A stretch of DNA of 64,000 nt from Octopus sinensis (taxonomy: Eukaryota): the NCBI RefSeq assembly GCF_006345805.1, contig NC_043000.1:40858001-40922000 (forward strand), written 5' to 3'. Below, piece after piece: positions 6,231 to 64,000 of the stretch. The position numbers and the translations under genes were made by a program. Within the stretch, counting starts at the first letter, position 1. Every line of letters starts with the position of its first letter. The notes under the pieces were generated by a model, which was not told where the DNA came from, did no database searches, and worked only from the letters and a program-made list of their open reading frames with translations.

Positions 6231-6868
6231 ATTTTAATCAGTTTCGCTGTTGTGGGTCAGCTTGATTACCACCGGGCTACACACACCACACACACACACA
6301 CACACACACGCACACTACACGCACACACACACACATATGTATATATACTTACTGTTTGGATGCCCACCAGGAGAAGAGGCTTTAAGATTATTATTCTTAT
6401 CTGTAATTAAAATAAATAACATGAGTCATTTCTGGTGTTTAAGATAAATTATGAGGACTTAAAATATACAAAAATGACTTGTACATATAGAGGAGAAATT
6501 TAATTGATTAAGTCTACAGCAGTACTTAACTGGTACATGTCACATCAACCTCGAGGACATAAAGCGCAAATTTATTATTCGTAGGATTTGAACATGGTTT
6601 CCCATAACTTACATGACACATTACTTCCAAATGTTGACAGAAGAGGAAAAGTTGTGACAGTCATAGAAATTATAAACGAAACTGAAAATTGAATGTACAC
6701 TGAAATTTATATTTGCAACGAAATATGAATATTACAGCTAATAATTAAATTTAAATAAATGAATTTATGCACAAAAATACTTTCATAAGATTTGTAATAA
6801 CATTTTCAAATGCCATAGGGAAAAGGATATAACACGGTTATTTCAGACTAAGTTTTAAGGTATCTTAC

Positions 6869-12184: not shown

Positions 12185-12217
12185 CGTTCTCTTTCTTTGA
12201 AATAACTTCAGCATTTT
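12185..12217 (-). CDS. Microexon, 33 nt, phase 1-1: NAEVISKKEN
   Basis: ttttttataccatcacag|AAAATGCTGAAGTTATTTCAAAGAAAGAGAACG|gtaagttgacat. Confidence 0.65.
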
Positions 12218-15281: not shown

Positions 15282-15311
15282 TATTTATAGGTGCAGTCAC
15301 GCCACCATACT
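15282..15311 (-). CDS. Microexon, 30 nt, phase 1-1: (E)YGGVTAPIN
   Basis: ctaattcttcctcttgtttatattctccag|AGTATGGTGGCGTGACTGCACCTATAAATA|gtaagt. Branch-like CTAAT plus polypyrimidine tract. Confidence 0.7.
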
Positions 15312-16072: not shown

Positions 16073-17299
16073 GGGTACATATACAGTATATGTGTTTGTT
16101 TGTTTGTGTGTAGTCGTCTAAGTATTTATGAGTCAGTAAAAATAGACACTTGTATATTTGTCACTAGAGTATGTATATCAGCCGGCCTTAATAATCGGTT
16201 TCGTGCAGAATAATCAGACGAATATCTAAGACCGCAGTTGTGTGAGTATTTGTGCGTGAATGAATGTATGCATTTTTTAGTCCTTCATATAACAAAACAT
16301 GAAGTAATATGTTGTTCATGGGAAGCAAACTTAAAGGTTCATTGGTTGTTTTCTATTTAATTATATTTATATATCTTGAAATCAATTCAATATAATATTT
16401 CTTTACTACACACAAGGGGCTAAACACAGACGGGACAAACAAGGACAGACAAACGGATTAAGTCGATTATATCGACCCCAGTGTGTAACTGGTACTTAAT
16501 TTATCGACCCCGAAAGGATGAAAGGCAAAGTCGACCTCGGCGGAATTTGAACTCGGAACGTGACGACAGACGAAATACAGCTACGCATTTCGCCCAGCGT
16601 GCTAACGTTTCTGCCAGCTCGCCGCCCTTATATTATAGTTATATATACATACCTCTGCTCGCCTTGCTCCTCCACGTATTATATGTGGGATTTGGATATG
16701 CTAACAACAAATGATATTAAAATATAATTCATGTATCATGGTTTGTCAAACAGCAAAACTGTAATATCAAAAGAAGCTTAAACTATTAAATTAAGGGGTA
16801 AAATCTGTATTGATATTTCTCTCTGAAAAAGCAACTCGCCTGAAATAATTTATACTAATGAAGCCGAATATAGAGAATTTTCCTTGCGTTTAGGAAGCTG
16901 AGCTTCTAGCATATATCGAACTAAAGGCGTCAAGTCTCGATATTTGCCTATCTGTTTTATGCTTCTGGGACAACCTGCAAATAAAGTTATTGTTCGTTCC
17001 TCTTCTGACAATTTTATAACTATCGGCCCATAAATAACTTTTCGTTTTGTATGAATTGATCATGGTATTAAAAACCGACAAATCATTGTACGGATTACAG
17101 TGAGATATTTTATAATACCACGTGGGATACGTACATAGGATTTTCTAGATGGCTTTTCAAAGTTAGGTGTTCTTTACTGAAGAAGACACACTGTATCAAT
17201 GGGTGATTATATGTAACAGAGCTCCCTGCATTTTTGTTAAAATGAAATCACTCCGACGTCTACTCACTCAGCGATCTTTCCATAGCTCTTTGAGCAGTT

Positions 17300-19697: not shown

Positions 19698-19727
19698 CTT
19701 TACCATTTGAAGCATACGATGCCCAAT
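19698..19727 (-). CDS. Microexon, 30 nt, phase 1-1: (D)WASYASNGK
   Basis: ctttctttttaatttcag|ATTGGGCATCGTATGCTTCAAATGGTAAAG|gtaaga. Confidence 0.7.
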
Positions 19728-23520: not shown

Positions 23521-24504
23521 ATAGTATTTTGTGAGAATTAAAATATTTTTACGGCTGAACTCAAAATAGATAAATGAATATTAGATTAAAAACCCAGTTA
23601 ATGAACAAGTCTAATATTGAGTTATCTGTAGCTTTAACTACTTCGAGTTCCACACACACACACACACACGCATATATATATATGGTAGCTAATATCGATT
23701 ATGATCACGGTTTGACAGGTTTTATTTTTAACCCTGCTGTATCTTGCGCTCCCCCGTTCTATTTGTAATGACAGCACACCGTTCTTTGAATTTTTAACAT
23801 TAAGAATATTTAAACGTTTGAAATTGGAGTAGATTTTTTAAATAAGCACACATATATACATATATATTTACATTTATGTATATGTGCGTATGTATATATG
23901 TGTATATGTGTATCCAATATATGTACGCCTTTAATTCTCATCTCTTTTACTCTTCTTCTCTCAAAGACACAACACTGAATACGTTTCAAAGAAAACGTAC
24001 TCCAGTGGAACTAAAGCACATTCGACCACTTTCCTTATCCACTTTTTCCTGTCCAGGTATACATTTCTAAGGAGGATCAAACAGAAAGCGAAGTATATTT
24101 CCTTCAGTACTGTGGTATATCGTGAAAAATCATAAACTTGATTCAGACTTTTAGATGAAATAACCAATTACAATCCATTGTAGTTTGGCAATGATCAAAA
24201 AACATTGTGAAGTTTAATTATATTTACGTCTGAAAGGGCTAGGCCTCACGGGTGCCGCTTTATAGTAATTTTGGTAATAACGTTCGAGGTATTCTGAAAA
24301 AGAGCAAAGTGTATAATTTTATATAACTTGATATATTTATTTCTCAGTAATATATATTATGTTCATATTAGCAAATCTGCATTTATAAAATTAGTAATGT
24401 TTAAATGTTTGAGATTGCTTTGAACATATTGATATGTCCTGCATTATGACGACGTATTTCTTGGTCTGCGTGACTGGCCCGTACGGCATACCTCGCCGAC
24501 CGTT

Positions 24505-27968: not shown

Positions 27969-28018
<50 letters not shown>

Positions 28019-28037
28019 CATTATTATTATTATTATT

Positions 28038-28109
<72 letters not shown>

Positions 28110-28454
28110 TTGAGTGAGAGAGCAATGCATGCCATCAAAGTGACACTGGGGTAAACTATACGAAGCTCATAAGTGTACACCAAGCACGTGCTTCACAACC
28201 ATATGTGCGCGACATGGTGATCTCATATCAAGAGAAACAACGCATAACCTTGCAGATAGGGCCTAGTTAGAATTTCCTTCAGGTCTAGTAGCTCATTCCA
28301 CTCAAAAGGTCATTGAACAAATTTTGTTTTAAGGATGATGAACAAAAGACCCATGTTTCCAGAGATGAATTATTCAAATCCCAAAGTATTCCTCTCACTA
28401 CATAGCTATGATGCTCCCCCCACTGTTCCTTTTGCTAAACGTCCCCGGTGTTCC

Positions 28455-28548
<94 letters not shown>

Positions 28549-28567
28549 CATTATTATTATTATTATT

Positions 28568-28617
<50 letters not shown>

Positions 28618-28987
28618 TATTATTATTATTATTATTATTATTTTGAGTGAGAGAGCAATGCATGCCATCAAAGTGACACTGGGGTAAACTATACGAAGCT
28701 CATAAGTGTACACCAAGCACGTGCTTCACAACCATATGTGCGCGACATGGTGATCTCATATCAAGAGAAACAACGCATAACCTTGCAGATAGGGCCTAGT
28801 TAGAATTTCCTTCAGGTCTAGTAGCTCATTCCACTCAAAAGGTCATTGAACAAATTTTGTTTTAAGGATGATGAACAAAAGACCCATGTTTCCAGAGATG
28901 AATTATTCAAATCCCAAAGTATTCCTCTCACTACATAGCTATGATGCTCCCCCCACTGTTCCTTTTGCTAAACGTCCCCGGTGTTCC

Positions 28988-29040
<53 letters not shown>

Positions 29041-29060
29041 ATTATTATTATTACTACTAC
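27968..29060. repeat. Tandem duplication of about 535 bp bounded by (ATT)n(ATC)n microsatellites
   Basis: 28110-28460 is essentially identical to 28644-28995. Confidence 0.9.
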
Positions 29061-29264
29061 TACTACTACTACTACTTCTAGTGGCAAAATCGTTAGCATG
29101 CTGAAAGAGACGCTTCGCAGCATTTCGTCCGTCTTTATGTTCACAGTTCGAATCCCACTCAGGTCGACTTTGCCTTTCATTCTTTCAGGATCTATAAAAT
29201 AAGAACCAGTTGAGCATTGCGGTCGATGTAATCGACTTACGCCAATTTTTGAGTTCGTCTAAAA

Positions 29265-30090: not shown

Positions 30091-32288
30091 TGTGTGTGTG
30101 TGTGTGTGTGTCTGTGTCTGTGTGTCTGAGTGTGTATGTGTGTGTGTAGGAAGTGAAGGATAAAAATATGGATAAAAGGCAGTATACATATACGAACACA
30201 TTTGCAAACACACACCAACAATTCAATTTTATTTCCGTACAGACAACATAACACTATCAACCTCATACCACCACAACAACATTTTTCTTTATCCTGTCAA
30301 AAACTGATTGATTCTATCCCTTTCACCTACGACCTCAGCTACGTCAGCCGAAAGTAAAATCAACAGAGGATCACCTATATACCTACAAACGCTGCTGACG
30401 TATGTCTATTTTTATAGCTGCAACCACATTATATATACCGTACTTAACACACACCATGATACACCACAAATGTACCCTGAACGAGATGGACTATTCATTA
30501 TAATACATCAGTTCCACACATTTACCCTGGTTACATTTCGGACAACTGCACAAACATTTGCCATTTGACACATGTATGTAAACAAATTCCTTTCTTAAAA
30601 ATTTCAATTCATTTTCTTTTTCAATTTACGTTTCTATACACTTTACACAAATATTTGATTAAACAACTGAAACACTTCACATTTGGAACATGTACGTAAA
30701 CTACTTCCATTCTTACAAATCTAACTTTATTTTCCTGCTTTTAACTCAAGTTTCAATACACTTTACACTCTGTCGCTATACTTGCATAAACAATTTCTTT
30801 CAGCTGCAAATATTTCTTTCTTTTCCTTCCACGGTCAACATTTTTCCACATTTCATTCACATTACGATTTCTATCTTTAAGTAACTTTCACCCTTTCTTT
30901 TTCACATAAAATGCCACCGAAAAAGACAAGTCGCCTCGGCCGCCATACTGCAGCAGCGGCGGCGCAAAAGACGATTATCGCAAACGAGTCCTCCGACAAA
31001 AAGGCTTTCAGTCTTTCACAGAGCGCCTTACGTTCAGCGGAATCACGAGCTGCTGAAAATTTACAACAGCGCAACGCACGCCTAGCAAAAATGGCTTCAT
31101 ACGATGCTGCTTCCAGGGTTTCAGAGGGTCCGGAAACAAGGTCGAATCGCATGGCCATAAAGGCTGCTGCTGTTGTTGCTGCACAAAAGGCTTCAGAGGA
31201 CCCACAACAAAGGGCCACTCGACTGGCTACAAACGCTGCGGCTACTGCTGCTTCAGCATTTTCGGAACATTTAGAACTACCGACCACTCACCTTCATACG
31301 AACGAGGCGCATTGCACTGCTTCCATGCCTTCTCAAGATGCAGACGGCCGGTCCATTACCATTGCAAACTTCGCTTCTGCTACTCATGCGACACATTCCC
31401 ACGACTCAGACCAGCAACGTTCTTCATTCCAGCGGAACAGTCGACGGCGCGAGGCTACCCGCGGTCTGACGAGTCCAAACAGCCCTTACTGGCATCTACG
31501 GGCTTTCAAGTATGAGCCCAACTTCAATTACTCGATGCACGCTGACATAAATATTGGGGAAATGTGCTTTAATTGCCAATTCTGCAATGCTAAAAAGTGG
31601 GCTGGGGAACCACCTGCAATGTGCTGCTTAAACGGTAAGGTCAGCTTGCCCCCTCTTCGGGAGCTGCCAGACCCTTTGAAGGAATTACTTACTGGTTCTA
31701 CCTCAAGGTCATCGAAACTCCTTCAACTCATTAGGAAGTACACTTGTGCATTTCAGATGACTTCTTTCGGGGCTAACGTTGTCAGAGAAACTGGTTGGAT
31801 GCCTAATTTCAAGGTCCAGGGCCAGGTGTACCACCTTATTGGGTCACTCCAGCCACTACAAAATTGCAAACCTTCGTTCCTTCAAATTTATTTCATTTCA
31901 AATTACAATAGGCAACTTGATGTGCGTTTCGGCGTAATTTCACAACCTGCAAATACTGACGCTGGCAATTTCGACAGGGATGTGCTGCTCAGTCTGCAAA
32001 ACATGCTTCATGAGCACAACAGCTACATTCGCAGTTTCAAATACGCCTTGGAAACAGCCCCTTCACCAACATTCACCATTGTCATCGATGCTGACAAAAG
32101 ACCTTCTGGGGAGCACGCACGCCGATATAACGCTCCTTCGTGCAATGAAGTGGCCATAGTTCTCCATGGTGAACAGCACAATAAGCGATACATAGTTCTT
32201 CAAAGCCGCGAATCATCATAATTCAGTTCAATCATTAACAGTACTTTCAAGCAATTCAGGCCCGAGCAACGCCGGGCAATTCTGCTAG
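29265..32288 (+). mobile_element. Helitron deletion derivative
   Basis: A|TCTCTTATGATAAAAGGCAG 5' end; 3' hairpin GCCCG..CCGGGC followed by CTAG|T. Confidence 0.88.
30911..32221 (+). CDS. Helitron RepHel N-terminal region (STPR-like repeats plus Cys-rich Zn-finger-like domain), ending before Rep/helicase
   Basis: 436-aa ATG ORF with CQFCNAKKW..EPPAMCCLNGKV, IRKYTCAFQMTSFG, FKVQGQVYHLIGSL and RRYNAPSCNEVAIV. Confidence 0.85.
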   Translation: MPPKKTSRLGRHTAAAAAQKTIIANESSDKKAFSLSQSALRSAESRAAENLQQRNARLAKMASYDAASRVSEGPETRSNRMAIKAAAVVAAQKASEDPQQRATRLATNAAATAASAFSEHLELPTTHLHTNEAHCTASMPSQDADGRSITIANFASATHATHSHDSDQQRSSFQRNSRRREATRGLTSPNSPYWHLRAFKYEPNFNYSMHADINIGEMCFNCQFCNAKKWAGEPPAMCCLNGKVSLPPLRELPDPLKELLTGSTSRSSKLLQLIRKYTCAFQMTSFGANVVRETGWMPNFKVQGQVYHLIGSLQPLQNCKPSFLQIYFISNYNRQLDVRFGVISQPANTDAGNFDRDVLLSLQNMLHEHNSYIRSFKYALETAPSPTFTIVIDADKRPSGEHARRYNAPSCNEVAIVLHGEQHNKRYIVLQSRESS

Positions 32289-34343: not shown

Positions 34344-34457
34344 TTCCATTTCTGGCATCATATCCATAACCACCATACTGAGGACGTACTAAGTGACCAC
34401 CTCGATATTGATGAGTGTCGTGAACATTATGGGCCATGGAATGACCTTCGTCGTGAT
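34344..34457 (-). CDS. Exon, 114 nt, phase 1-1: (D)HDEGHSMAHNVHDTHQYRGGHLVRPQYGGYGYDARNG
   Basis: tttacattttttcag|ATCAC...AATGGAA|gtaagt. His/Gly/Tyr-rich open frame that overlaps track ORF 34225..34437. Confidence 0.82.
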
Positions 34458-48508: not shown

Positions 48509-48574
48509 CTTCAGATGAGCCATCATCTCTATTATTAAGCATGTGCATATTCCTATGAGGATTTTCAGAGGACT
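48509..48574 (-). CDS. Small exon, 66 nt, phase 1-1: (E)SSENPHRNMHMLNNRDDGSSE
   Basis: ttttacattttactcag|AGTCC...TCATCTGAAG|gtaatgattgttaaatctcg. Exon 3' end and donor flank are homologous to the 45-nt exons. Confidence 0.78.
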
Positions 48575-51250: not shown

Positions 51251-51350
51251 NNNNNNNNNNNNNNNNNNNNNNNNNNNNNNNNNNNNNNNNNNNNNNNNNN
51301 NNNNNNNNNNNNNNNNNNNNNNNNNNNNNNNNNNNNNNNNNNNNNNNNNN
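51251..51350. other. Assembly gap (100 N)
   Basis: Run of n. Confidence 1.
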
Positions 51351-51800: not shown

Positions 51801-52462
51801 AAGGCTGTTGGGGTTTAGTGAGCCATTCACTCTATCAATCTCCGACTCTGCTTGGATTTATTGGTGCAGTAAACAAGCGGATCATACCCTTCAACATTAA
51901 ATCTGCAGAGAAGTCTATTATGTGTTCTCGGCTAAAGTGGACCGGTTGTTCACTGCTACTCGGATGCTACTCAGAGCAAGTGGTTCCTGTGTTAAAACGA
52001 AGGAAACGCCTTAAGTGCATTCAAACGCCACTGACGATTCATCCCAGGGCATCATTATGTTGTACCTTAGAACTAAAATTCTGGGTTAATCTTTGGCGGC
52101 AGCGAAAGAATCAGATAATTTGGTAACTACTAGAATGCCGTCCGAGAGCACTCAGAGAAAGTTAACTGGGCAACACAACCCGTAAAGACATTCTTTGCTA
52201 AGATTAAACCACGTGAAGGACACTCCAGGAGAGAGGGAGGAGAAAATGACAATCCTCAACAGGTTGCATTTACTTATTTCTCACCGAACAGTCGTGAAAA
52301 GGACGATGAATATATAACGTAAATATCTGGAAAATATACCGTATATAAATCTTACGTTGCTCTGTCAATTCTGTCAGGTCGCGAGCCTTTTCTAGCTATA
52401 TAATACAATACATCAGATGCCAGCATATCAAGAAAATAATGTTGAGACGTAACAATAATTAC

Positions 52463-52507
52463 CTTCAGATGAGTCACCATAACTACTAAAATCATGTCCG
52501 TGGGATT
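52463..52507 (-). CDS. Microexon, 45 nt, phase 1-1: (E)SHGHDFSSYGDSSE
   Basis: tttttttcag|AATCCCACGGACATGATTTTAGTAGTTATGGTGACTCATCTGAAG|gtaatt. Confidence 0.8.
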
Positions 52508-53166
52508 CTGAAAAAAATTGAAATATATATGATGACTGCAGACTCATTTATGGCTCAGCCTCTCTCTGCCTTTCTCACACGCTCTCACACTCTGTCTTTC
52601 TCTCATCCACATGCCCACACACATGTGTACACGAACTCACACCCACATATAATGTTTGATAAATATACAGAGGTACAAAATGAAAATGTTTATTACACCA
52701 ATTGTCATCCATACAGCTATGATCGTTTCGAAGCCTTTATCATATGAAAACTATTTTAGTGTATGATAAATAATACTTTACTTTACATGCCGGTATTAAT
52801 ACGTATAGTATAAATTATATAATTCAGTTGCAGAATTTATAAATTAATACTGGTAAAAGGACTTGTTCATCACGTCAAAGAATATTGTTACTTTCATCGA
52901 CACAATGCATATATATAAACGCAAAGTGTTAGCATGCGTAATACTGATATATGGAAGACAATAATTAATAAAATATAGAAGAAAGGTAGGACATTTAGTA
53001 TGATATTTAAAAGTAAACAGTGGATTACGATGGTGGAAGAAAAGGTACATATAGTAAGATATATATGGAACATTATATAGTTATTGTTAATTAACCTCGA
53101 AGTGAAAATGGTAGGTAAAGTAAAAACGAAGCTATAGGTAGTGTTGAAGATATTCTGTTTACGGAA

Positions 53167-53495
53167 TACACCTCCCCCTCGACTTACGACCTGTGTAACT
53201 TACGAACATCAGCACTTACGATTACACAAATCAATCAATAAATAAATAATCGACTTTCAGATGTTGGGCAGCTGCGCGTTACAATAACTATGACAGCATC
53301 TGGCAACGCAGGCCTCCAGCAGACTCAGACTCAGACATTCACTGCCTGCCACCGTCTCTCACTCACTCACTGACAGGCATCAGTTGTGTTTGAGTGAAAA
53401 TAGTGTTGAAAAATATAAATACGACATACGACCAGATCGAATTACGACCTATCAGTCGGAACGGAGCTCGTTTGTAAGTCGAATAGAAGGTGTAA
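53167..53495. mobile_element. TA-flanked MITE, duplicated at about 63017-63318
   Basis: tacacctcc..tcgacttacga ... gtaagtcgaatagaaggtgta. Confidence 0.65.
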
Positions 53496-53912
53496 ATTGA
53501 TGAATAAGAACAATACAAGGAATAAATTGAAAGTATAAGGAAATAAAAGTAAAAAAATAGGATGAAATAAAGGAAGACAGGGCATGAACAATATTGATAT
53601 TGTAAATGGAAGACATTGAAATATATGTCAAACTAATAAAATAAACAATACCCCGACTCCTTCCTCATAGTTTATATACTCCTAATGAAATAATCATAAT
53701 CAAGTGGATCTATTGGATTTCAACTGTATCTGACTATATATTACATTCCTTTTTCTGTTTTGGTTTACTGTGTGGATTGTAGTCTCATCTCTTATAAGAG
53801 TTTTTGTTGTGAGTACCTCTGGATTAGTTACATCCATATATTGTCCATTAAATTTACAATAAAAATATACTTATGCATATAAATATACATACATACATAC
53901 ATATATGTATAA

Positions 53913-54007
<95 letters not shown>

Positions 54008-54284
54008 AGGCGCAATGGCTTAGTGGTTAGGGCAGCAGACTCGCGGTCGTAGGATCGCGGTTTCGGTTCCCAGACCGGGCGTTGTGAGTGTTTATTGAGC
54101 GAAAACACCTAAAAGCTCCACGAGGCTCCGGCACGGGGTGGTGATCCCTGCTGTACTCTTTCACTCTTTCTCCCACTCTTTCTTCCGTTAGCCTGCTCGC
54201 TTAGCGTCATTCGAAGGCTAAAACAATGCGAACGCATAGTGACCAGCGATGTGTAACTACATCTGATGGACTGGTCGGTCACGT

Positions 54285-54315
<31 letters not shown>

Positions 54316-54366
54316 ATCGTCACGTGACCGACCAGTCCATCAGATGTAGTTACACATCGCTGGTCA

Positions 54367-54437
<71 letters not shown>

Positions 54438-54688
54438 TTATTTATATATTTATTTATATTAAGGGCTTTACTATACATAAATGCTTCACACGCATATATA
54501 TCGTAGCGTGAAGCATTTATGTATAGTAAAGCCCTTAATATAAATAAATATATTTAAAGGGGATAACCAATAATTTTTCCCTCATGAGGTTTTTCACGCT
54601 GACTACTTCATAAATTCTTAAAAAAGATTTTATCCTATTTTAAAATTATATATATATATATATTATATATATATACACACACACGCAC

Positions 54689-54737
<49 letters not shown>

Positions 54738-54867
54738 TACAATGAACAAACGAAATAAATATTGTTTTCCCATGCGCTAACGTTTCTGCCTGTTCGCAAC
54801 CTTTATATAATAGAATACATTAGATGCCAGTAAGGTAGGGAAAAAGTCGAGATGTAACAATAATTAC

Positions 54868-54906
54868 CGCCAGATGATTTTTCATAATCATTATGGCTAT
54901 GTTCTT
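54868..54906 (-). CDS. Microexon, 39 nt, phase 1-1: (E)EHSHNDYEKSSG
   Basis: ttttacattttttcag|AAGAACATAGCCATAATGATTATGAAAAATCATCTGGCG|gtaatt. Confidence 0.78.
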
Positions 54907-54964
54907 CTGAAAAAATGTAAAAATATATGTAGCTATATGATGACTGTAGACTCATTTACAACTT

Positions 54965-56052
54965 AGTCACACACAGAGGAGGAAAGATTTAATGCGTAGC
55001 TACGTGGAGAAAGAAGTTTAATGAAAAGCTGTAGAAGATGTGCTGTAGCAGCAAAATTTACCCGCGATATTTAATGAAACTTTGCCAAAAGTAGATGTTC
55101 CGTAGTCGAGACTACACATCGATTTCGAAGGTCCTTTGAACGGTTCATACTACATAGTGTTAGTTGATAGTTTCTCTAACAGACACAGAGAACGCTTTGG
55201 CAATAGGTTTATAAGAGACCTAAGAAGATCAAATAAGGAAGTCACAGACGAAGCAGCTCTACAAAATTCTTAAGACTATACCGTGTGACACCATCCAAAT
55301 ATATAAGCAGGTATGTCATCAGCGGAGCTGATATTTGCGAGGAAAATAAAATCATTCTTCGACAAATTGCTACAGGACAAGAAAAGAAAAATTGCAAGGG
55401 AAATGCAGCAGGATTTTTCAAAATTCAAGTAAAGTTATTTGTGAGGGCATATAAGAACAGAAAACTGAATTAGGAAGATGGCGTGATTACCAAACGCATA
55501 GGAAAAATGCTATATTTTTCCTATGTAGAAATGGTGTATACGAGAGTCACATGAACCAACTGAAAAGAGATTCGTTGAGAGTGAACTCAAGAGAATGGGA
55601 AAAAAATGGAACGGTTATATGATGTTTCAAGCACCAACAGCAGTACAGGTGATTGAACTCAGGCGAACGAGCGTAAGAATAAGAAAATGTACGGAGTTCC
55701 TGGAAGTAGATTCCGAAAAAGAAAACTAATAATGTGTTACTGAGAAAACAAAGGAACCTCAAAAGAGGGAGGTGAGTTGATATAAAAAGTATTGTTAATA
55801 AAAGAAATAAAATGACTCTCCTTGAGAAAAAATAAATACTTAAAAGGGGAGATGTTGTGGGGATAATAGTAATAATGTAAAACCCACCCACGTGACGAGT
55901 AGTATATGCTAGTCGCTATAAATAAGATGACGTCGCTCAGTATAGGAAGAGATTACGTAGTAGTCATTCTTATTTGTGTATTTACTGGTCTAAAAATTAT
56001 ACAGCTCTACCAGAGTGGGCACTAGAACAATCCGACATTAAGGATTACAACA
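54965..56052 (+). mobile_element. Ty3/gypsy integrase remnant with PPT and 3' LTR
   Basis: RLHIDFEGPLNGSYYIVLVDSFS; PPT aaaaggggaga, then LTR TGTTGT(55853)...ACAACA(56052). Confidence 0.72.
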
Positions 56053-56054
56053 GT

Positions 56055-56760
56055 CACTAAAGAACATTACATCCGAATAAAGAAAAGCTGAACCTCGGAA
56101 CTCTCAGCATTCAATAAAACAGTGGCTCACAATGTGATTGGAGTGCCAGTACTCATATGAACATTTGGGCTGTTTGATTGGACGGGTGATGAGATCCGAG
56201 CCATTGACTTGGAAACATGGAAGATACTAACCAGCACAAAATATCCAACAGCGACGTAAACCGTCCCTACATGAAGCGAAAACAAGGGGCATAGATCTAG
56301 CATCGATTCAAACTACCTTGGGATGTCGTATCATATGAATGATACGAAGGGTCGGCAAAATATTTTAAGAATAAGTGTCGAAGTGTATCTCTTAACAAAG
56401 TTTACATACATGAGGTTGATAATATCATGAGACTTAGGAAGCAGCTCCTTGAGCAGCATTCCTTGTCTGAGAACGTTAAATACATGCCCAAGATAGTCGC
56501 ATGACTCTGCCTCAACATATGATCAGATGAAAGAATGAGCATATCTGAGAAGATGATGCATAGATATGTTAGGAGAAAGCTCCAGGATGATAGTAACATT
56601 GAGTAACAAAGCAGTCTATCATGGACCAACAACCGGATTACTGAACCCCACTTGGAAGGCTATGCGTTTGCAATCCAGCAACAGGAAATATCAATGAACT
56701 ACCTGATGCACAAAATGGATAGAGAAGCAAGAAAATTGGTGTACTAAGATAGCTAACATA
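56055..56760 (+). mobile_element. R4/Dong-like LINE C-terminal remnant
   Basis: VPVL..TFGLFDWTGDEIRAIDLETWKIL and LEGYAFAIQQQEI fragments. Confidence 0.6.
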
Positions 56761-58054
56761 TCACTTAAGTTCCAATCTTGAGAAATTAGGATTCTCAAAA
56801 CGAGAAAGAAGAAAGCTGATTCGAAGATTACGGTTTGAAGCCATTGCTGGAAATGTAAAAATCTCTAATACTTTCCAGAATTTAAAACAGTTAAGTATAT
56901 ACGTGTAAGTCTAGACGTGCAACTGTATGCAAGTGAAGATATATATAATAAAAATCATACAAATCTGCACATGTACTGACTCAAAATACAGCACATATAC
57001 GTACATACATGGAAAAGTACCTTGCTGATGTTGAAATTCCAATGAAGGAGTTTGGGATCTAGGTTAGAAAGCGGCGCTTTCTCTAATGGCAAGTGATCTT
57101 GAAATGAAACTGAATAATGACATACATACATACATAAGTATATGTTGTGTGTGTGAGTGTGTGTGTATGGGTGTGTTTATGTGTGTGTATTTGTGTGTAG
57201 TACTTTACCTATATTTTTCTTTTTAGTCTCGTTATGTTGAAATCGGAAGTAACCTCGCAAAGCACTGTTCTAACAATGCATGCCTAGACGACTGGGCAAG
57301 TTTCTGGGTCTCTACAGTTACAAATTTGGAGTAGGTGCCTGATGAGATCTGCTTTTGATAATGTATCTATCTATCTATCTTTCTATAAGACTGTTGGTGT
57401 TTAGTGGGCCATTCGCTCTGCCAATCTCTGGCTCTCCTTGGATTTATTGTTGCAGTGAACAAGTCGGCCATATGTTTCACCATTAAATCTACAGAGAAGG
57501 CTACCATGTGTCATTGACTAAAGCGAACACGTGGTTCACTGCCACTGGGATGTAAGCTGTGGCTCGATGAATTCTAGATTCGTTAAGCGAGCAAGTGATT
57601 CCGATGTTAAAACGACGGAAACTCCATAAGTGCAATCAAACATCACCGACGCTGCATCCCAGACCCTCATTATGATGTACCTTAGAACTAAAATCCTGCG
57701 TTAATCTTTGACTGCGGTGAAAGAATAAGATAATCTGGTGACTACAAAAATGCCAGCTGAGAGCACTCAGAGCATGTTAACAGGGCAACGCGACCCGTAA
57801 AGCCTTCCTTTGGGGAGATTAAAACATGTGAAGGATACCCCTGGAGAGAGGGAGGAGAGAATGATAATTCCAGCAGGTCGGATTTACTTGTTTCACTCCG
57901 AGTAAACGGGAAAAGAGCGTTGAATGTAAAACGTAAGTATTTGGAAAATATACCGCATATAGAGTTTCTGGTGCTCTAACGATTTTGTCAGGTTGCGAAC
58001 CTTTTATGGCTATTAGTATAACAAGAGAAAATGGTGAGAAATAACAATAATTAC

Positions 58055-58099
58055 CCTCAGATGAGTCAGGATCACTACGAAAATCATATTGGTGGGATT
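58055..58099 (-). CDS. Microexon, 45 nt, phase 1-1: (E)SHQYDFRSDPDSSE
   Basis: tttttttcag|AATCCCACCAATATGATTTTCGTAGTGATCCTGACTCATCTGAGG|gtaatt. Confidence 0.8.
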
Positions 58100-58163
58100 C
58101 TGAAAAAAATTAAAATATATATGATGACTGCAGACTCATTTATGGCTCAATCTATCTCACACA

Positions 58164-58243
<80 letters not shown>

Positions 58244-59100
58244 CACATTCCTCCACGTTAGGTCATCAAGTATGAAAGTTGCAGAAAAGAAAACAATGTT
58301 TGCTAGCGTTTTATAAATACAAGAAATAGTTTTATTCATTTAAGTATGCAGCCGCATTGTCAATACACATTTGCCATTTCAGTAGTAGCTTGTCCAGCCC
58401 GGAACTGCAAAAGCTTCGCAATCTAGAGTCAATAAAATCGTGGAAGGCCTGTTTTGCAGCATCGTCGGAATTATATTGTTTCTTATCAAAATGTTATTCA
58501 AATTCTGGAAGAATTCTTAGTCAGTGTATATACCAACAAGTATTTCACTAGAGGGCCCTACTCAGTTATATGTTAAAGAAAAATACAAGATGGTGTTGGA
58601 CTGATAAATAGCAGAATGCATTTGACGAGTTAAAAAGCATTTTAACATCGGGCCTATCGTTAAGGCATTTTGATCCAAAGTTGGATATTGTATTGACTTC
58701 AGACGCGAGTGACTATGGCGTAGGAGATATGTGTTTTGTGCAAATATGACTATAAGAGTAAAAAGGCGTCCATGTATGACCTGGTGGCTTCTAGAATGCC
58801 AGTCGAGAGCACTCAGAGCAAGTTAACTGGGCAATGCGACCCGTAAAGCCTTTCTTTGGGGAGATCCAACAGTGTGAAGGACAGTCCTGGAGAGAGGGAA
58901 GAGAGAATGATAACCCCAGCAGTTCGGATTTACTTATTTCGCTCCGAGTAAACGGGAAAAGAGCGATAAAAGTAAAACGTAAGTATTTGGAAAATATACC
59001 GCATATAGAGTTTCTGGTGCTCTCACGATTTTGTCAGGTTGCGAACCTTTTATGGCTCTTAGTATAACAAGAGAAAATGGTGAGACATGACAATAATTAC

Positions 59101-59145
59101 CCCGAGATGGGTCATCAATACTATGTAAACCATATTCGTGGGATT
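59101..59145 (-). CDS. Microexon, 45 nt, phase 1-1: (E)SHEYGLHSIDDPSR
   Basis: Identical to the 61198 exon, with intact AG/GT sites. Confidence 0.75.
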
Positions 59146-59218
59146 CTGAAAAAAATTAAAATATATATGATGACTGCAGACTCATTTATGGCTCAATATA
59201 TCTCACTCACTCATTCAC

Positions 59219-59283
<65 letters not shown>

Positions 59284-60141
59284 ATACACATTCCTCCACT
59301 TTAGGTCATCAAGTATGAAAGTTGCAGAAAAGAAAACAATGTTGCTAGCGTTTTATAAATACAGAAATAGTTTTATTCATTTAAGTATGCAGCCGCATTG
59401 TCAATACACATTTGCCATTTCAGTAGTAGCATGTCCAGCCCGGAACTGCAAAAGCTTCGCAATCTAGAGTCAATAAAATCGTGGAAGGCCTGTTTTACAG
59501 CATCGTCGGAATTATATTGTTTCTTATCAAAATGTTATCCAAATTCTGGAAGAATTCTTAGTCAGTGTATATACCAGCAAGAATTTCACTAGAGAGCCCC
59601 ACTCAGTTATATGTTAAAGAAAAATACAAGATGGTGTTGGACTGATAAATAGCAGAATGCATTTGACGAGTTAAAAAGCATTTTAACATCGGGCCTATCG
59701 TTAAGGCATTTTGATCCAAAGTTGGATATTGTATTGACTTCAGACGCGAGTGACTATGGCGTAGGACATGTGTTTTTGCGCAAATATGAACATAAGAGTA
59801 AAAAGGCGTCCATGTATGACCTGGTGACTTCTAGAATGCCGACCGAGAGTACTCAGAGCAAGTTAACTGGGCAATGCGACCCGTAAAGCCTTTCTTTGTA
59901 GAGATCAAACAGTGTGAAGGACAGTCCTGGAGAGAGGGAAGAGAGAATGATAACCCCAGCAGTTCGGATTTACTTATTTCGCTCCGAGTAAACGGGAAAA
60001 GAGCGATAAAATGTAAAACGTAAATATTTGGAAAATATACGCGCATATAGAGTTTTTCTGGTGCTCTCACGATTTGTCAGGTTGCGAACCTTTTATGGCT
60101 ATTAGTATAACATAGAAATGGTGAGACATGACAATAATTAC

Positions 60142-60186
60142 CCCGAGATGGGTCATCAATACTATGTAAACCATATTCGTGGGATT
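60142..60186 (-). CDS. Microexon, 45 nt, phase 1-1: (E)SHEYGLHSIDDPSR
   Basis: Identical to the 61198 exon, with intact AG/GT sites. Confidence 0.75.
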
Positions 60187-60258
60187 CTGAAAAAAATAAA
60201 ATATATATGATGACTGCAGACTCATTTATGGCTCAATATATCACACTCTCACTCATTC

Positions 60259-60341
<83 letters not shown>

Positions 60342-61197
60342 ACACATTCCTCCACGTTAGGTCATCAAGTATGAAAGTTGCAGAAAAGAAAACAATGTTT
60401 GCTAGCGTTTTATAAATACAAGAAATAGTTTTATTCATTTAAGTATGCAGCCGCATTGTCAATACACATTTGCCATTTCAGTAGTAGCATGTCCAGCCCG
60501 GAACTGCAAAAGCTTCGCAATCTAGAGTCAATAAAATCGTGGAAGGCCTGTTTTACAGCATCGTCGGAATTATATTGTTTCTTATCAAAATGTTATCCAA
60601 ATTCTGGAAGAATTCTTAGTCAGTGTATATACCAGCAAGAATTTCACTAGAGAGCCCCACTCAGTTATATGTTAAAGAAAAATATAAGATGGTGTTGGAC
60701 TGATAAATAGCAGAGGGTTTTTGACGAGTTAAAAAGCATTTTAACATCGGGCCTATCGTTAAGGCATTTTGATCCAAAGTTGGATATTGTATTGACTTCA
60801 GACGCGAGTGACTATGGCGTAGGAGATGTGTTTTTGCGCAAATATGAATATAAGAGTAAAAAGGCGTCCATGTATGACCTGGTGGCTTCTAGAATGCCAG
60901 CCGAGAGTACTCAGAGCAAGTTAACTGGGCAATGCGACCCGTAAAGCCTTTCTTTGTAGAGATCAAACAGTGTGAAGGACAGTCCTGGAGAGAGGGAGGA
61001 GAGAATGATAACCCCAGCAGGTCGGATTTACTTATTTCGCTCCGAGTAAAGGGAAAAGAGCGTTGGATGTAAAACGTAAGTATTTGGAAAATATACCGCA
61101 TATAGTGTTTCTGGTGATCTAACGATTCTGTCAGGTCGCGAACCTTTTATGGCTATTAGTATAACAAGAAAAAATGTTGAGACATGACAATAATTAC

Positions 61198-61242
61198 CCC
61201 GAGATGGGTCATCAATACTATGTAAACCATATTCGTGGGATT
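61198..61242 (-). CDS. Microexon, 45 nt, phase 1-1: (E)SHEYGLHSIDDPSR
   Basis: tttttttcag|AATCCCACGAATATGGTTTACATAGTATTGATGACCCATCTCGGG|gtaatt. Confidence 0.78.
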
Positions 61243-61299
61243 CTGAAAAAAATTAAAATATATATGATGACTGCAGACTCATTTATGGCTCAATTTATC

Positions 61300-61346
<47 letters not shown>

Positions 61347-61877
61347 ATACTCATTCCCCCACGTTAGGTCATCAAGTATGAAAGTTGCAGAAAAGAAAAC
61401 AATGTTTGCTAGTGTTTTATAAATACAAGAAATAGTTTTATTCATTTAAGTATGCAGCCGCATTGTCAATACACATTTGCCATTTCAGTAGTAGCTTGTC
61501 CAGCCCGGAACTGCAAAAGCTTCGCAATCTAGAGTCAATAAAATCGTGGAAGGCCTGTTTTACAGCATCGTCGGAATTATATTGTTTCTTATCAAAATGT
61601 TATCCAAATTCTGGAAGAATGTTAGTCAGTGGGGAAAGATCAGGTGAGTATGGTGGATGATGAAGAATTTGTAACTCCAACTCCTGCAGTTTCGTCAATG
61701 TTATTTTTGCAATGTGTGGTCTGGCGTTGTCTTGCAATAAAATAGGAGCGGATCTGTCCATTAATCTAGGCTGTTATTTTGTAAGTTTCTGCATCATTTG
61801 GTCCTATTGGCTGCAGTGTACAATACATTGGATGCCAGCATATCAAGAAAATAATGTTGAAACGTAACGATAATTAC

Positions 61878-61922
61878 CCTCAGATGAGTCACCATAAATA
61901 CTAAAATCATATTTGTGGGATT
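61878..61922 (-). CDS. Microexon, 45 nt, phase 1-1: (E)SHKYDFSIYGDSSE
   Basis: tttttcag|AATCCCACAAATATGATTTTAGTATTTATGGTGACTCATCTGAGG|gtaatt. Confidence 0.8.
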
Positions 61923-62216
61923 CTGAAAAAATTGAAATATATATGATGGCTGCAGACTCATTTATGGCTGAGCCTCTCTCTACCTCTCACACACACACGC
62001 TCTTCCACTCTCTCTTTCTCTCATCCGCATGCCCACACACATGTGTACACGCATACGCACACACACCCACATATAATATATGATAAATATACAGAGGTAC
62101 AAAATGAAAATATCTTTTACACCAATTGTCATCCATACAGCTATGATCGTTTCGAAGCATTTATCACATGAAAACTATTTTAGTGTATGACAAATAATAT
62201 TTTACTTTACATGCCT

Positions 62217-62638
62217 GGGATCCTTTCGGTTTGAACGGCAGTTTTTAACATAATTTCTAGGTAACTAAAAAATTTTAAATTTCGTTTACTTGTAGAATGT
62301 TTTTATAAAACATCTTTTTCTCCTGGCTTTATTGAGAAAATTCTATATTTTGTAAGATATTTGGTTGTTTTTTTTTTTTTCAATTTCTGCAATTTCAACC
62401 AATCAATGACCGTCTATTGAGATGAAAATATTGTGTGCCGTATGAATATGTCCCTCGTTTAAGAAACAGATTGGGTTTATTTACATTTCTGAAGAAAGAA
62501 AGATACCCTCCCCCCACCCCTAATCCTAACCCTAAAACAGATTGAAATGCAATAGATCGATGCTATGGTCATAATTATGGGTGACAATTTCATATGACAC
62601 CGCTAGAAAAAAGCTGCCGTTCAAGCCGAAAAGATCCC
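62217..62638. mobile_element. MITE with 6-bp TSD (ATGCCT)
   Basis: TIRs gggatcctttcggtttgaacggcag / ctgccgttcaagccgaaaagatccc. The paralogous site at about 52786 is empty (tttacatgccggtatt). Confidence 0.88.
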
Positions 62639-63779
62639 ATGCCTGTATTAATACGTATAATATAAATTATATAATTCAGTTTAAAAATTTATAAATTAAT
62701 ACAGGTAAAAGGACTTGTCATCACGTCAAAGGATATAGTTACTTTCATCGACACAATGCATATATATAAACGCAAGGAGTTAGCATGCGTAATACTGATA
62801 TATGGAAGACAATAATTAATAAAATATAGAAGATAGGTAGGAGATTTAGCATGATATTAAAAAGTAAACAGTGGATTACAATGGTGGAAGAAAATGTACA
62901 TATAGTAAGATATATATGGAACATTATATAGTTATTATTAATAACCTAGAAATAAAAATGGTAGATAAAGTAAAAACCAAACTATATGTAGTGTTGTAGA
63001 TATTCTGTTTACGGAATACACCTCCTCTTCGACTTACGACCATCCACACTTACGACTATAAAAATAAAAAAATAAATAATCGACTTTCGGACATTGGGCA
63101 GCTGCGAGTTACAATAACTATGGCAGCATCTGGCAACGCAGGCCTCCAGCAGACTCAGACATCCACTGCCTGCCACCGTCTCTCACTCAGTCACTGACAA
63201 GCATCAGTTGTGTTTGAGTGAAAATAGTGTTGAAAAATATAAATACGACATACGACCAGATCGAATTACGACCTATCAGTCGGAACGGAGCTCGTTTGTA
63301 AGTCGAATAGAAGGTGTAAATGGATGAATAAGAACAATACAAGGAATAAATTGAAAGTATAAGGAAATAAAAGTAAAAAAAAATAGGATGAAATAAAGGA
63401 AGACAGGGCATGAACAATATTGATATTGTAAATGGAAGACATTGAAATATATGTCAAACTAATAAAATAAACAATACCCCGACTCCTTCTTCATAGTTTA
63501 TATACGCCTAAGGAAATAATCATAATCAAGTGGATCTATTGGATTTCAACTGTATCTGACTATATATTACATTCCTTTTTCTGTTTTGGTTTACTGTGTG
63601 TATTGAATGCTGATCTATGAAAAGAGCTTTGTTTGTGAGTACCTCCGGATTAGTTACATCCATATATTGTCCATTAAAGTTATAAAAATATCATATATGT
63701 ATATAAATGTGCATATATTTATGTATATAAATATACATATATGTATGTAAATAAATATACATATATATATATAATATAT

Positions 63780-63995: not shown

Positions 63996-64000
63996 CACTA
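63996..64000 (-). CDS. Microexon gene: 3' end of an exon cut by the window edge
   Basis: Minus strand ...TAGTG|gtaattattgttaaatctcgac. Same donor and downstream intron as the exon at 54868-54906. Confidence 0.65.

Follow-up and report, generated by a model that had tools for sequence, protein, structure and literature searches.

Background

The closest described layout to that of the gene reported here is found in the SmPoMuc genes of Schistosoma mansoni, a multigene family of a parasite in which, according to extracts of the published description (PMC2576457), each tandem repeat of about 1 kb carries one short exon and a (GA)n microsatellite, a 27-bp exon being present in two main types and in up to 20 copies. 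The introns are more than 93% alike while the exon types differ, and in the same extracts conversion of the introns together with selection on the exons is invoked. In the schistosome micro-exon genes (MEGs), as portrayed in extracts of PMC4350168 and PMC10526429, most of the coding sequence lies in short symmetric exons, a signal peptide is present, the introns are rich in repeats and dN/dS is high in the mature part of the protein. Alternative splicing has been demonstrated for these genes. They comprise 10-20 exons, the majority 15 bp long, and were described as apparently restricted to platyhelminths. In extracts of PMC3924837, exon 5 in the genes for red and green opsins forms a peak of divergence under gene conversion, and the vertebrate SCPP/SIBLING genes, in extracts of PMC3632108, encode secreted disordered phosphoproteins with duplicated short symmetric exons and S-x-E kinase motifs.

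The window analysed here is a stretch of 64,000 nucleotides from Octopus sinensis (contig NC_043000.1, positions 40,858,001 to 40,922,000, assembly GCF_006345805.1) which holds part of a predicted gene with a comparable design. The octopus gene resembles SmPoMuc, as far as the extracts describe it, in its 1-kb units, its GA microsatellite and introns that are more alike than the exons; the likeness is one of layout, a likeness in sequence not being among the matches found. It differs from SmPoMuc in being single-copy and in having two arrays (of 45-nt and of 42-nt exons), numerous types of exon and a peptide that is acidic and His/Ser-rich. Unlike the MEGs it has 34 predicted exons, mostly of 30-51 nt, spread over approximately 135 kb in a free-living mollusc, and exon skipping is predicted only. 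The pair of octopus exons at the centre of this study is like opsin exon 5 in that an exon of high divergence is flanked by introns of low divergence, in duplicates between which DNA is exchanged, but here the duplicates are exons inside one gene and the deficit of silent changes points to acceleration besides retention. With the SCPP/SIBLING genes the octopus gene shares short symmetric duplicated exons and S-x-E motifs, phosphorylation and mineral binding being predictions; no homology between them was found. SCPP introns are in phase 0 and those of the octopus gene in phase 1. The gene works like the SmPoMuc and MEG systems and, judging from searches with its downstream half, is not a member of them by descent.

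Results and discussion

Organisation of the gene

The predicted gene model contains 34 coding exons over approximately 135 kb. All 32 internal exons are multiples of three in phase 1-1 and 30 of them are no longer than 66 nt, which corresponds to the short symmetric exons of MEG architecture, although the exons here are longer than the typical 15-bp MEG exon. Joining 33 of the exons gives a frame of 533 residues with no stop (one 33-nt exon was entered 3 nt off). The copies keep their splice sites and have lengths of 36, 39, 42, 45, 51 and 66 nt, all in frame. A splice-site scan of 183 kb (the window and a further 119 kb), using a profile trained on 11 of the gene's own exons, gave 20 rows with 18 distinct symmetric candidates, all on the minus strand, and no symmetric candidate on the plus strand. 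The nine DNA matches to the exon region in the 2.72-Gb genome were all local.

Past the end of the window, upstream of the exon at 63996, six more micro-exons and a predicted signal-peptide exon (about 29 kb out) were located. This candidate was chosen by visual inspection of a hydrophobicity scan in which false hits were numerous. It consists of 20 hydrophobic codons, ends in a phase-1 donor, is situated 6 kb upstream of where the micro-exons start and is single-copy in the genome. A donor at 93587 was rejected as the signal exon because of its wrong phase and may belong to a 5' UTR exon. On the left of the window the gene extends for approximately 42 kb, a part which includes a second array of six 42-nt exons.

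When the 114-nt exon at 34344-34457 was used as query a single protein was retrieved, the hypothetical protein CAI9721792.1 / A0AA36F281 of O. vulgaris (here P0001). Its sequence can be aligned collinearly with the 66-nt exon, then the 114-nt exon, then three exons of 30-33 nt and further exons up to 42 kb left of the window, with 4 differences from the gene model in 253 aligned residues; it is the likely ortholog of the downstream half of the gene. Since the two are approximately 98% identical there is no sign of fast change between the two assemblies in that half. P0001 starts at an internal Met inside the 66-nt exon, without the signal peptide and without the whole 45-nt array, so the array exons have no annotation support. 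It further differs in that the 66-nt exon peptide is partly repeated once more and in that 55 residues (four exons) of the gene model are absent. Several good-looking exons of this locus are omitted from P0001, which may be a matter of skipping, of copy-number difference or of annotation gaps.

The initial annotation held that the exons are real, and this is upheld by the 32 symmetric phase 1-1 exons, the predicted signal-peptide exon and the downstream junctions that match the O. vulgaris model; on these sequence features it is well supported that they are parts of one gene. The gene is probably a largely unannotated micro-exon gene, predicted to be single-copy. Over 51810-63650, three putative RNA runs gave thin, unspliced or repeat-derived cover, and among the 15 joints listed of 160 none falls on an array exon border, which says nothing on expression. 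The features within the window are collected in Table 1.

Table 1. Features of the micro-exon gene in the window (positions counted from the first letter of the window; flanks are named in the direction of transcription)
Feature	Position	Strand	Remarks
Exon, 33 nt	12185..12217	-	Used in P0001
Exon, 30 nt	15282..15311	-	Used in P0001
Exon, 30 nt	19698..19727	-	Used in P0001
Candidate alternative last exon	24214..24293	-	With stop codon; absent from P0001
Exon, 114 nt	34344..34457	-	His/Gly/Tyr-rich; 38 residues identical to P0001
Exon, 66 nt	48509..48574	-	Matching peptide precedes that of the 34457 exon in P0001
Micro-exon, 45 nt	52463..52507	-	(E)SHGHDFSSYGDSSE
Micro-exon, 39 nt	54868..54906	-	(E)EHSHNDYEKSSG
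Tandem cassettes	57735..61631	.	About four units of ~1.04 kb; in every unit a single exon, fragments of high-copy repeats and a (CT)n microsatellite
Intron 3' of exon 58055	57740..58054	-	9.8% from its 59101 counterpart, rising from 5.6% near the exon to 15.6% far from it
Micro-exon, 45 nt	58055..58099	-	(E)SHQYDFRSDPDSSE; phase 1-1; T-rich CAG acceptor, GTAATT donor
Intron 5' of exon 58055	58100..58750	-	~2.4% from its 59101 counterpart; the comparison of the initial annotation falls here
Micro-exon, 45 nt	59101..59145	-	(E)SHEYGLHSIDDPSR; phase 1-1; T-rich CAG acceptor, GTAATT donor
Micro-exon, 45 nt	60142..60186	-	Identical to 59101; 3' flank 3.5% from that of 59101
Micro-exon, 45 nt	61198..61242	-	Identical to 59101; 3' flank 5-6% from those of 59101 and 60142
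Micro-exon, 45 nt	61878..61922	-	(E)SHKYDFSIYGDSSE; sister of 52463
Micro-exon, 39 nt, 3' end	63996..64000	-	A further 34 nt lie beyond the window end; sister of 54868

Some further observations were made along the locus. An assembly gap of 100 N at 51251-51350, between the exons at 52463 and 48509, could hide further exons; P0001 has the extra copy of the 66-nt exon peptide. The candidate last exon is Tyr/Arg/Pro-rich and basic, with A(A/T)TAAA motifs 280 and 490 nt downstream, and would yield a short His-rich isoform without the glycosylated half of the protein. Four symmetric exon candidates on the minus strand (16653-16700, 6353-6400, 2233-2274 and 780-812) are skipped by the O. vulgaris model; they have good splice sites and mostly basic peptides, and two more lie left of the window.

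Outside the window, the six 42-nt phase-1 exons of the second array lie approximately 28.3-37.7 kb left of the window start, near 40820260-40829670; the units are chimeric, 5' and 3' flanks differing in ancestry, and one pair has a spike of divergence. In-frame indels separate two paralogous exons of 42 nt (L010:9233-9274) and 36 nt (L012, 24.2 kb further), which share only about 21 aligned bases within an enclosing duplication that exceeds 3 kb and has 4-8% substitutions. A recent duplication of approximately 2.9 kb, 18-23.5 kb left of the window start, holds two exons in identical copies with flanks 0-2% apart; these exons are present once each in the O. vulgaris model, and the duplication may be a haplotype duplicate in the assembly. 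Within the window, an intron of the gene contains an open frame of 446 codons on the plus strand (30881-32218), probably derived from a mobile element. The window also holds a 576-nt tandem duplicate (27969-28541 / 28499-29074) with (TTA)n tracts, the copies of which are 97.9% identical with no substitution outside simple repeats.

The exon pair 58055/59101 and its flanking introns

Translated in phase 1-1, the exon at 58055 reads ESHQYDFRSDPDSSE and the exon at 59101 ESHEYGLHSIDDPSR. The initial annotation reported that the two differ at 11 of 45 nt, none of the differences being silent, and listed eight residue replacements (Q>E, D>G, F>L, R>H, D>I, P>D, S>P, E>R). Our recount gave the same 11 differences, with 11 replacement and 0 silent steps along every mutational path, and reproduced all eight replacements. 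That the paralogous microexons in general differ only at replacement sites is true of this pair but not of others: pS is 0 among 58055, 61878 and the 59101 type, and silent differences appear (pS 0.09-0.42) in the comparisons involving 52463, 65786, 69070 or 69675.

Private bases number 4 in 58055, all amino-acid-changing, and 7 in the 59101 type. Of the 11 differing sites, 9 have a base that none of the five other paralogs shows, and the two exon types have one derived base in common, so pasting from a surviving paralog was rejected. The two types also have a 23-nt deletion in common. An RNA-editing footprint was rejected, as A/G differences having G in the 59101 type account for only 2 of the 11 sites and transversions for 6.

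In the 5' flank the pair differs at 12 of 507 nt (2.4%), with 1 of 61 (1.6%) in the part adjoining the acceptor, and in the 3' flank at 31 of 315 nt (9.8%), with 10 differences in the first 180 nt and 21 in the last 135; the two flanks differ in divergence with p=6e-6. Single 45-nt windows of the 3' intron contain up to 9-10 differences. The introns had been called nearly identical on the basis of a stretch with about 9 differences in about 300 nt. This stretch has 7 substitutions in 297 aligned nt and lies on the transcript 5' side only, and the description suits that side but not the 3' side. Alignment of both flanks did not bring intron divergence to a level similar to that of the exon. As for an older recombined tract with equally diverged flanks, the 3' side is indeed older than the 5' side, but the flanks that adjoin the exon differ by no more than 1.6% and 5.6%.

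DNA exchange among the cassettes of this gene is evident from the unlike distances that the two flanks of 58055 give and from the mosaic flanks of the second array, one unit there differing at 3 of 175 nt from one neighbour on its 5' side and at 6 of 190 nt from another on its 3' side. The three exons of the 59101 type are identical despite 3' flanks that are 3.5-6% apart. The features of SmPoMuc cassettes are present, namely four 1.04-kb units, a purine microsatellite (the (CT)n tract is GA on the transcript strand) and introns more alike than the exon types, the last chiefly on the 5' side. Intron gene conversion had been offered as an alternative to selection. Since conversion too is active in this gene the two ideas are not exclusive, and conversion is compatible with selection. 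Unit 60142 resembles a mosaic of its neighbouring units (58781-61631).

In the intron tree 58055 and the 59101 type are grouped with a bootstrap of 98. The exon data are compatible with this tree (p-AU 0.35) and also with a tree of an older split, in which 58055 is placed with 61878/52463 (p-AU 0.41), both values being from AU tests of 5000 replicates, which is below the advised number; an old exon inside converted flanks therefore stays compatible. At the depth of this older split (19-20%) 11 differences are no more than usual (p 0.18-0.23); when the deficit of silent change is included the joint p becomes 0.016-0.02.

In the DNA-like run X2 the contig depths of the three identical units (24, 24-57 and 63) add up to nearly the depth of unique pieces (77-159), depth not being equal to copy number; there is a hint here that the 59101 triplet has fewer copies in the animal of run X2, or is over-assembled. 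The exon at 52463 was found within a 741-nt contig piece of the same run with 1 difference.

Rates of change across the array

Silent and replacement multipliers were estimated under a codon model with branch lengths fixed from the intron alignments and with splice-site bases excluded. For the nine 45-nt exons the silent rate was 0.82 and the replacement rate 1.91 times the intron rate (replacement against 1, p=0.0013), the latter becoming 1.87 (p=0.004) when 10% double mutations were allowed. With seven units and the distal 3' flank only, the replacement rate was 1.90 (p=0.005), and the variants with 10% double mutations gave 1.82-1.87 (p 0.004-0.018). Over the array as a whole, replacements occur faster than local neutrality predicts, at 1.8-1.9 times the rate of the introns (p 0.001-0.018). 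Silent and replacement rates do not differ significantly from one another over the array (p 0.06-0.10), and dN against dS gave p 0.17-0.47 for the pooled conservative set and p=0.32 for the pooled sister pairs.

On the branches to 58055 and to the 59101 type, which were chosen post hoc, replacements accumulate 3.7-6.3 times as fast as changes in the introns (p 1e-5 to 1e-3) and the silent rate is approximately 0; dN exceeds dS with a nominal p of 0.005-0.07 under this post hoc choice. That these branches are longer but neutral was rejected with a nominal p of 0.005-0.016, in a test that is generous at such small counts. The background branches have replacement rates of 1.07-1.34, never different from 1 (p 0.25-0.86). 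Positive selection, as proposed in the initial annotation, finds support on the two focal branches and none in the rest of the array, where replacements accumulate at 1.1-1.3 times the intron rate.

Over the whole gene, ten sister pairs carry 35.75 replacements where the divergence of the higher flank predicts 21.8 (p=0.005), and 9.25 silent changes where 7.9 are predicted. The replacement excess is confined to two of the ten pairs, and the other eight are near-neutral with 16 replacements against 16.7 expected. The pair 52463/61878 had been counted as 5 differences, 4 of them replacements, and this is correct (4 nonsynonymous sites in 3 residues and 1 silent); it belongs to the eight near-neutral pairs, 4 of 31 replacement sites against a flank divergence of 7.8% being no elevation (p=0.22). 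For the six exons of the second array, joined flanks gave a replacement rate of 2.6 and a silent rate of 2.0, and the 3' flank alone, in four units, a replacement rate of 1.3 (p=0.46), which is no excess. One pair of this array has a spike of 8.8 replacements in 28.8 sites against 7.4% (p=9e-4) together with 2.2 silent changes in 10.2 sites. As an independent replicate of the selection signal the second array is mixed.

Significance of the exon spike

The main pair has its 11 differences in 30.7 replacement sites, which against the higher flank (9.8%) corresponds to p=1e-4, against the distal 3' flank (15.6%) to p=0.005, and to p=0.002 when adjacent double changes are merged in both exon and intron. 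An empirical control was performed with 92 duplicated alignments from a 253-kb region, from which simple repeats and exon columns had been removed; windows of 45 nt, which are not independent of each other, were each scored against their own 150-nt flanks. None of 569 such intron windows matches the extremity of the exon relative to its own flanks. Of the 417 windows in which neither flank exceeds 10%, a single one attains 11 differences. A free window scan over the exon and the 3' intron gave p=0.26 only, so the significance of the spike hinges on the exon being a window named in advance. The spike ends at both exon borders, with 1 difference in 61 nt on one side and 10 in 180 on the other. 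The absence of silent changes is weak evidence when taken alone (p=0.03-0.07), and the contrast of silent and replacement changes in the main pair (exact p 0.017-0.07) would fail a correction for about ten pairs.

Possible explanations

The explanation that we consider probable, though well short of assured, is that unequal exchange both multiplies the cassettes and makes them alike, and that some of the exons have undergone episodes of positive selection. Unequal crossing-over and gene conversion would build and partly homogenise the units of about 1 kb, and the (GA)n tract perhaps assists in this, as has been proposed in the case of SmPoMuc. Positive selection would have driven the amino-acid burst in the exons of 58055 and the 59101 type, most other copies drifting at about the intron rate, and the array exons would be spliced into the transcript. 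The change between 58055 and 59101 likely reflects a burst of selection on that pair and not on the whole array. Against this explanation count the post hoc choice of the focal branches, silent and replacement rates that do not differ significantly over the array, the fit of the exon data to an older split, the mixed second array and the identity of the three 59101-type exons in diverging flanks.

A simpler history needs no selection, the exons being near-unconstrained spacers of mosaic ancestry and the spike a chance cluster, or an older tract in a patch of conversion, that was noticed because it is extreme. The eight near-neutral sister pairs and a background replacement rate not different from that of the introns are as expected from relaxed constraint, as are the mosaic flanks, the intron windows with up to 9-10 differences and the any-window p of 0.26. 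Relaxed constraint fits poorly with the control, in which no intron window is as extreme against its own flanks, with two of ten exon pairs having a spike (p<1e-3), and with a spike that halts at the exon borders and holds no silent change among its 11 differences; we regard it as possible but rather unlikely. Still less probable, in our judgement, is an old exon split that has been preserved while the flanks were repeatedly converted, selection purging conversions across the exon and leaving a peak of divergence. The climb of the 3' flank to 15.6% with distance, the homogenised 5' flank, the three identical 59101-type exons within diverging flanks and the compatibility of the exon data with an older split all speak for such preservation, and like patterns are described in the extracts of PMC2576457 and PMC3924837. 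About 2 silent differences are due in an old exon and none is present (the joint p given above for a depth of 19-20%), and the intron tree and the common 23-nt deletion unite 58055 with the 59101 type.

That the copies are degenerate non-coding repeats or mis-assembled, the codon pattern being incidental, is very improbable. It would agree with the lack of a spliced array joint among the 15 joints listed of 160, and with the summed depth of the three identical units, which in run X2 is near that of unique pieces. Against it stand the splice sites kept at every copy, the in-frame lengths, the predicted signal exon upstream and the annotated exons of the same phase downstream; moreover the differences are substitutions rather than homopolymer indels, and it makes no difference to the result whether the triplet truly has three copies.

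The predicted protein

The N-terminal array amounts to 226 residues with a pI of 4.8, composed of 21% Ser, 12% Glu, 11% Gly, 11% His, 10% Asp and 8% Tyr (Asp and Glu together 22%). It contains 21 S-x-E motifs, some of which arise by composition at such contents of Ser and Glu. The remaining part is Ala/Thr/Asn-rich with 10 N-glycosylation sequons, and neither part has a cysteine. An S-x-E motif spans the junction after 8 of the nine 45-nt exons, both fast lineages included, the Ser two residues before the junction Glu being kept in the same proportion. S-x-E is recognised by FAM20C. The kept junction Ser fits a kinase motif that would be preserved around a variable centre.

The product is predicted to be a secreted, disordered and cysteine-free protein of approximately 575 residues. 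In the secretory pathway its N-terminal array might be phosphorylated, and the array might also bind calcium or transition metals. The Ala/Thr/Asn-rich half with its 10 sequons might be glycosylated. This suggests a role as component of a secreted coat (mucus, cement, cuticle, egg or sperm covering), and an outside partner, for instance a microbe, a parasite or a mate, may reshape its exposed peptides. Since all internal exons are symmetric, skipping would tune the set of repeats without breaking the frame.

Searches for relatives

Among 1663 candidate relatives of similar length, P0001 retrieved one, itself, and none among 3288 longer candidates. In a search of P0001, the array peptides lying outside it, against 1.84 billion representatives, the protein itself was found together with one weak match to a repeat region (P0002, E 4e-4), which was rejected as a homolog and taken as low-complexity likeness. 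Pfam gave no family above cut-off for P0001 (best DUF6993, E 0.093) and the Atlas search no usable match. Descent from the schistosome MEG or SmPoMuc families is not indicated by these searches, which concern P0001 and not the peptides of the 45-nt array. No description of the gene was found in the literature searched (octopus micro-exons, secreted His-rich or cement proteins), a collection with few subscription journals.

Exons evolving faster than introns are a feature of venom toxin genes, and the initial annotation drew this analogy. It is not sustained, as the modelled mature region has no cysteine and there is no family match; a search on exon-over-intron evolution in venoms returned no match in the same collection of few subscription journals.

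Conclusions

With considerable doubt we put forward a wider reading, namely that a free-living octopus has independently evolved a diversified secreted protein in the style of the schistosomes. Its micro-exon gene, 135 kb in length, would consist of symmetric cassettes that undergo shuffling, copying and combinatorial splicing, single cassettes having been swept by positive selection in an arms race with a parasite, a microbe or a mate while the S-x-E frame at the junctions was kept. Since each exon's own duplicated intron serves as a neutral yardstick, acceleration and protection from conversion can be separated if a few further genomes are added. Genes that encode variable secreted proteins in micro-exons have been described as apparently restricted to flatworms and have been explained by escape from host immunity. 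If the octopus gene truly is of the same design, that design arises in free-living animals as well, and the burst of replacements in single cassettes would then point to an undiscovered ecological or reproductive partner of the octopus.
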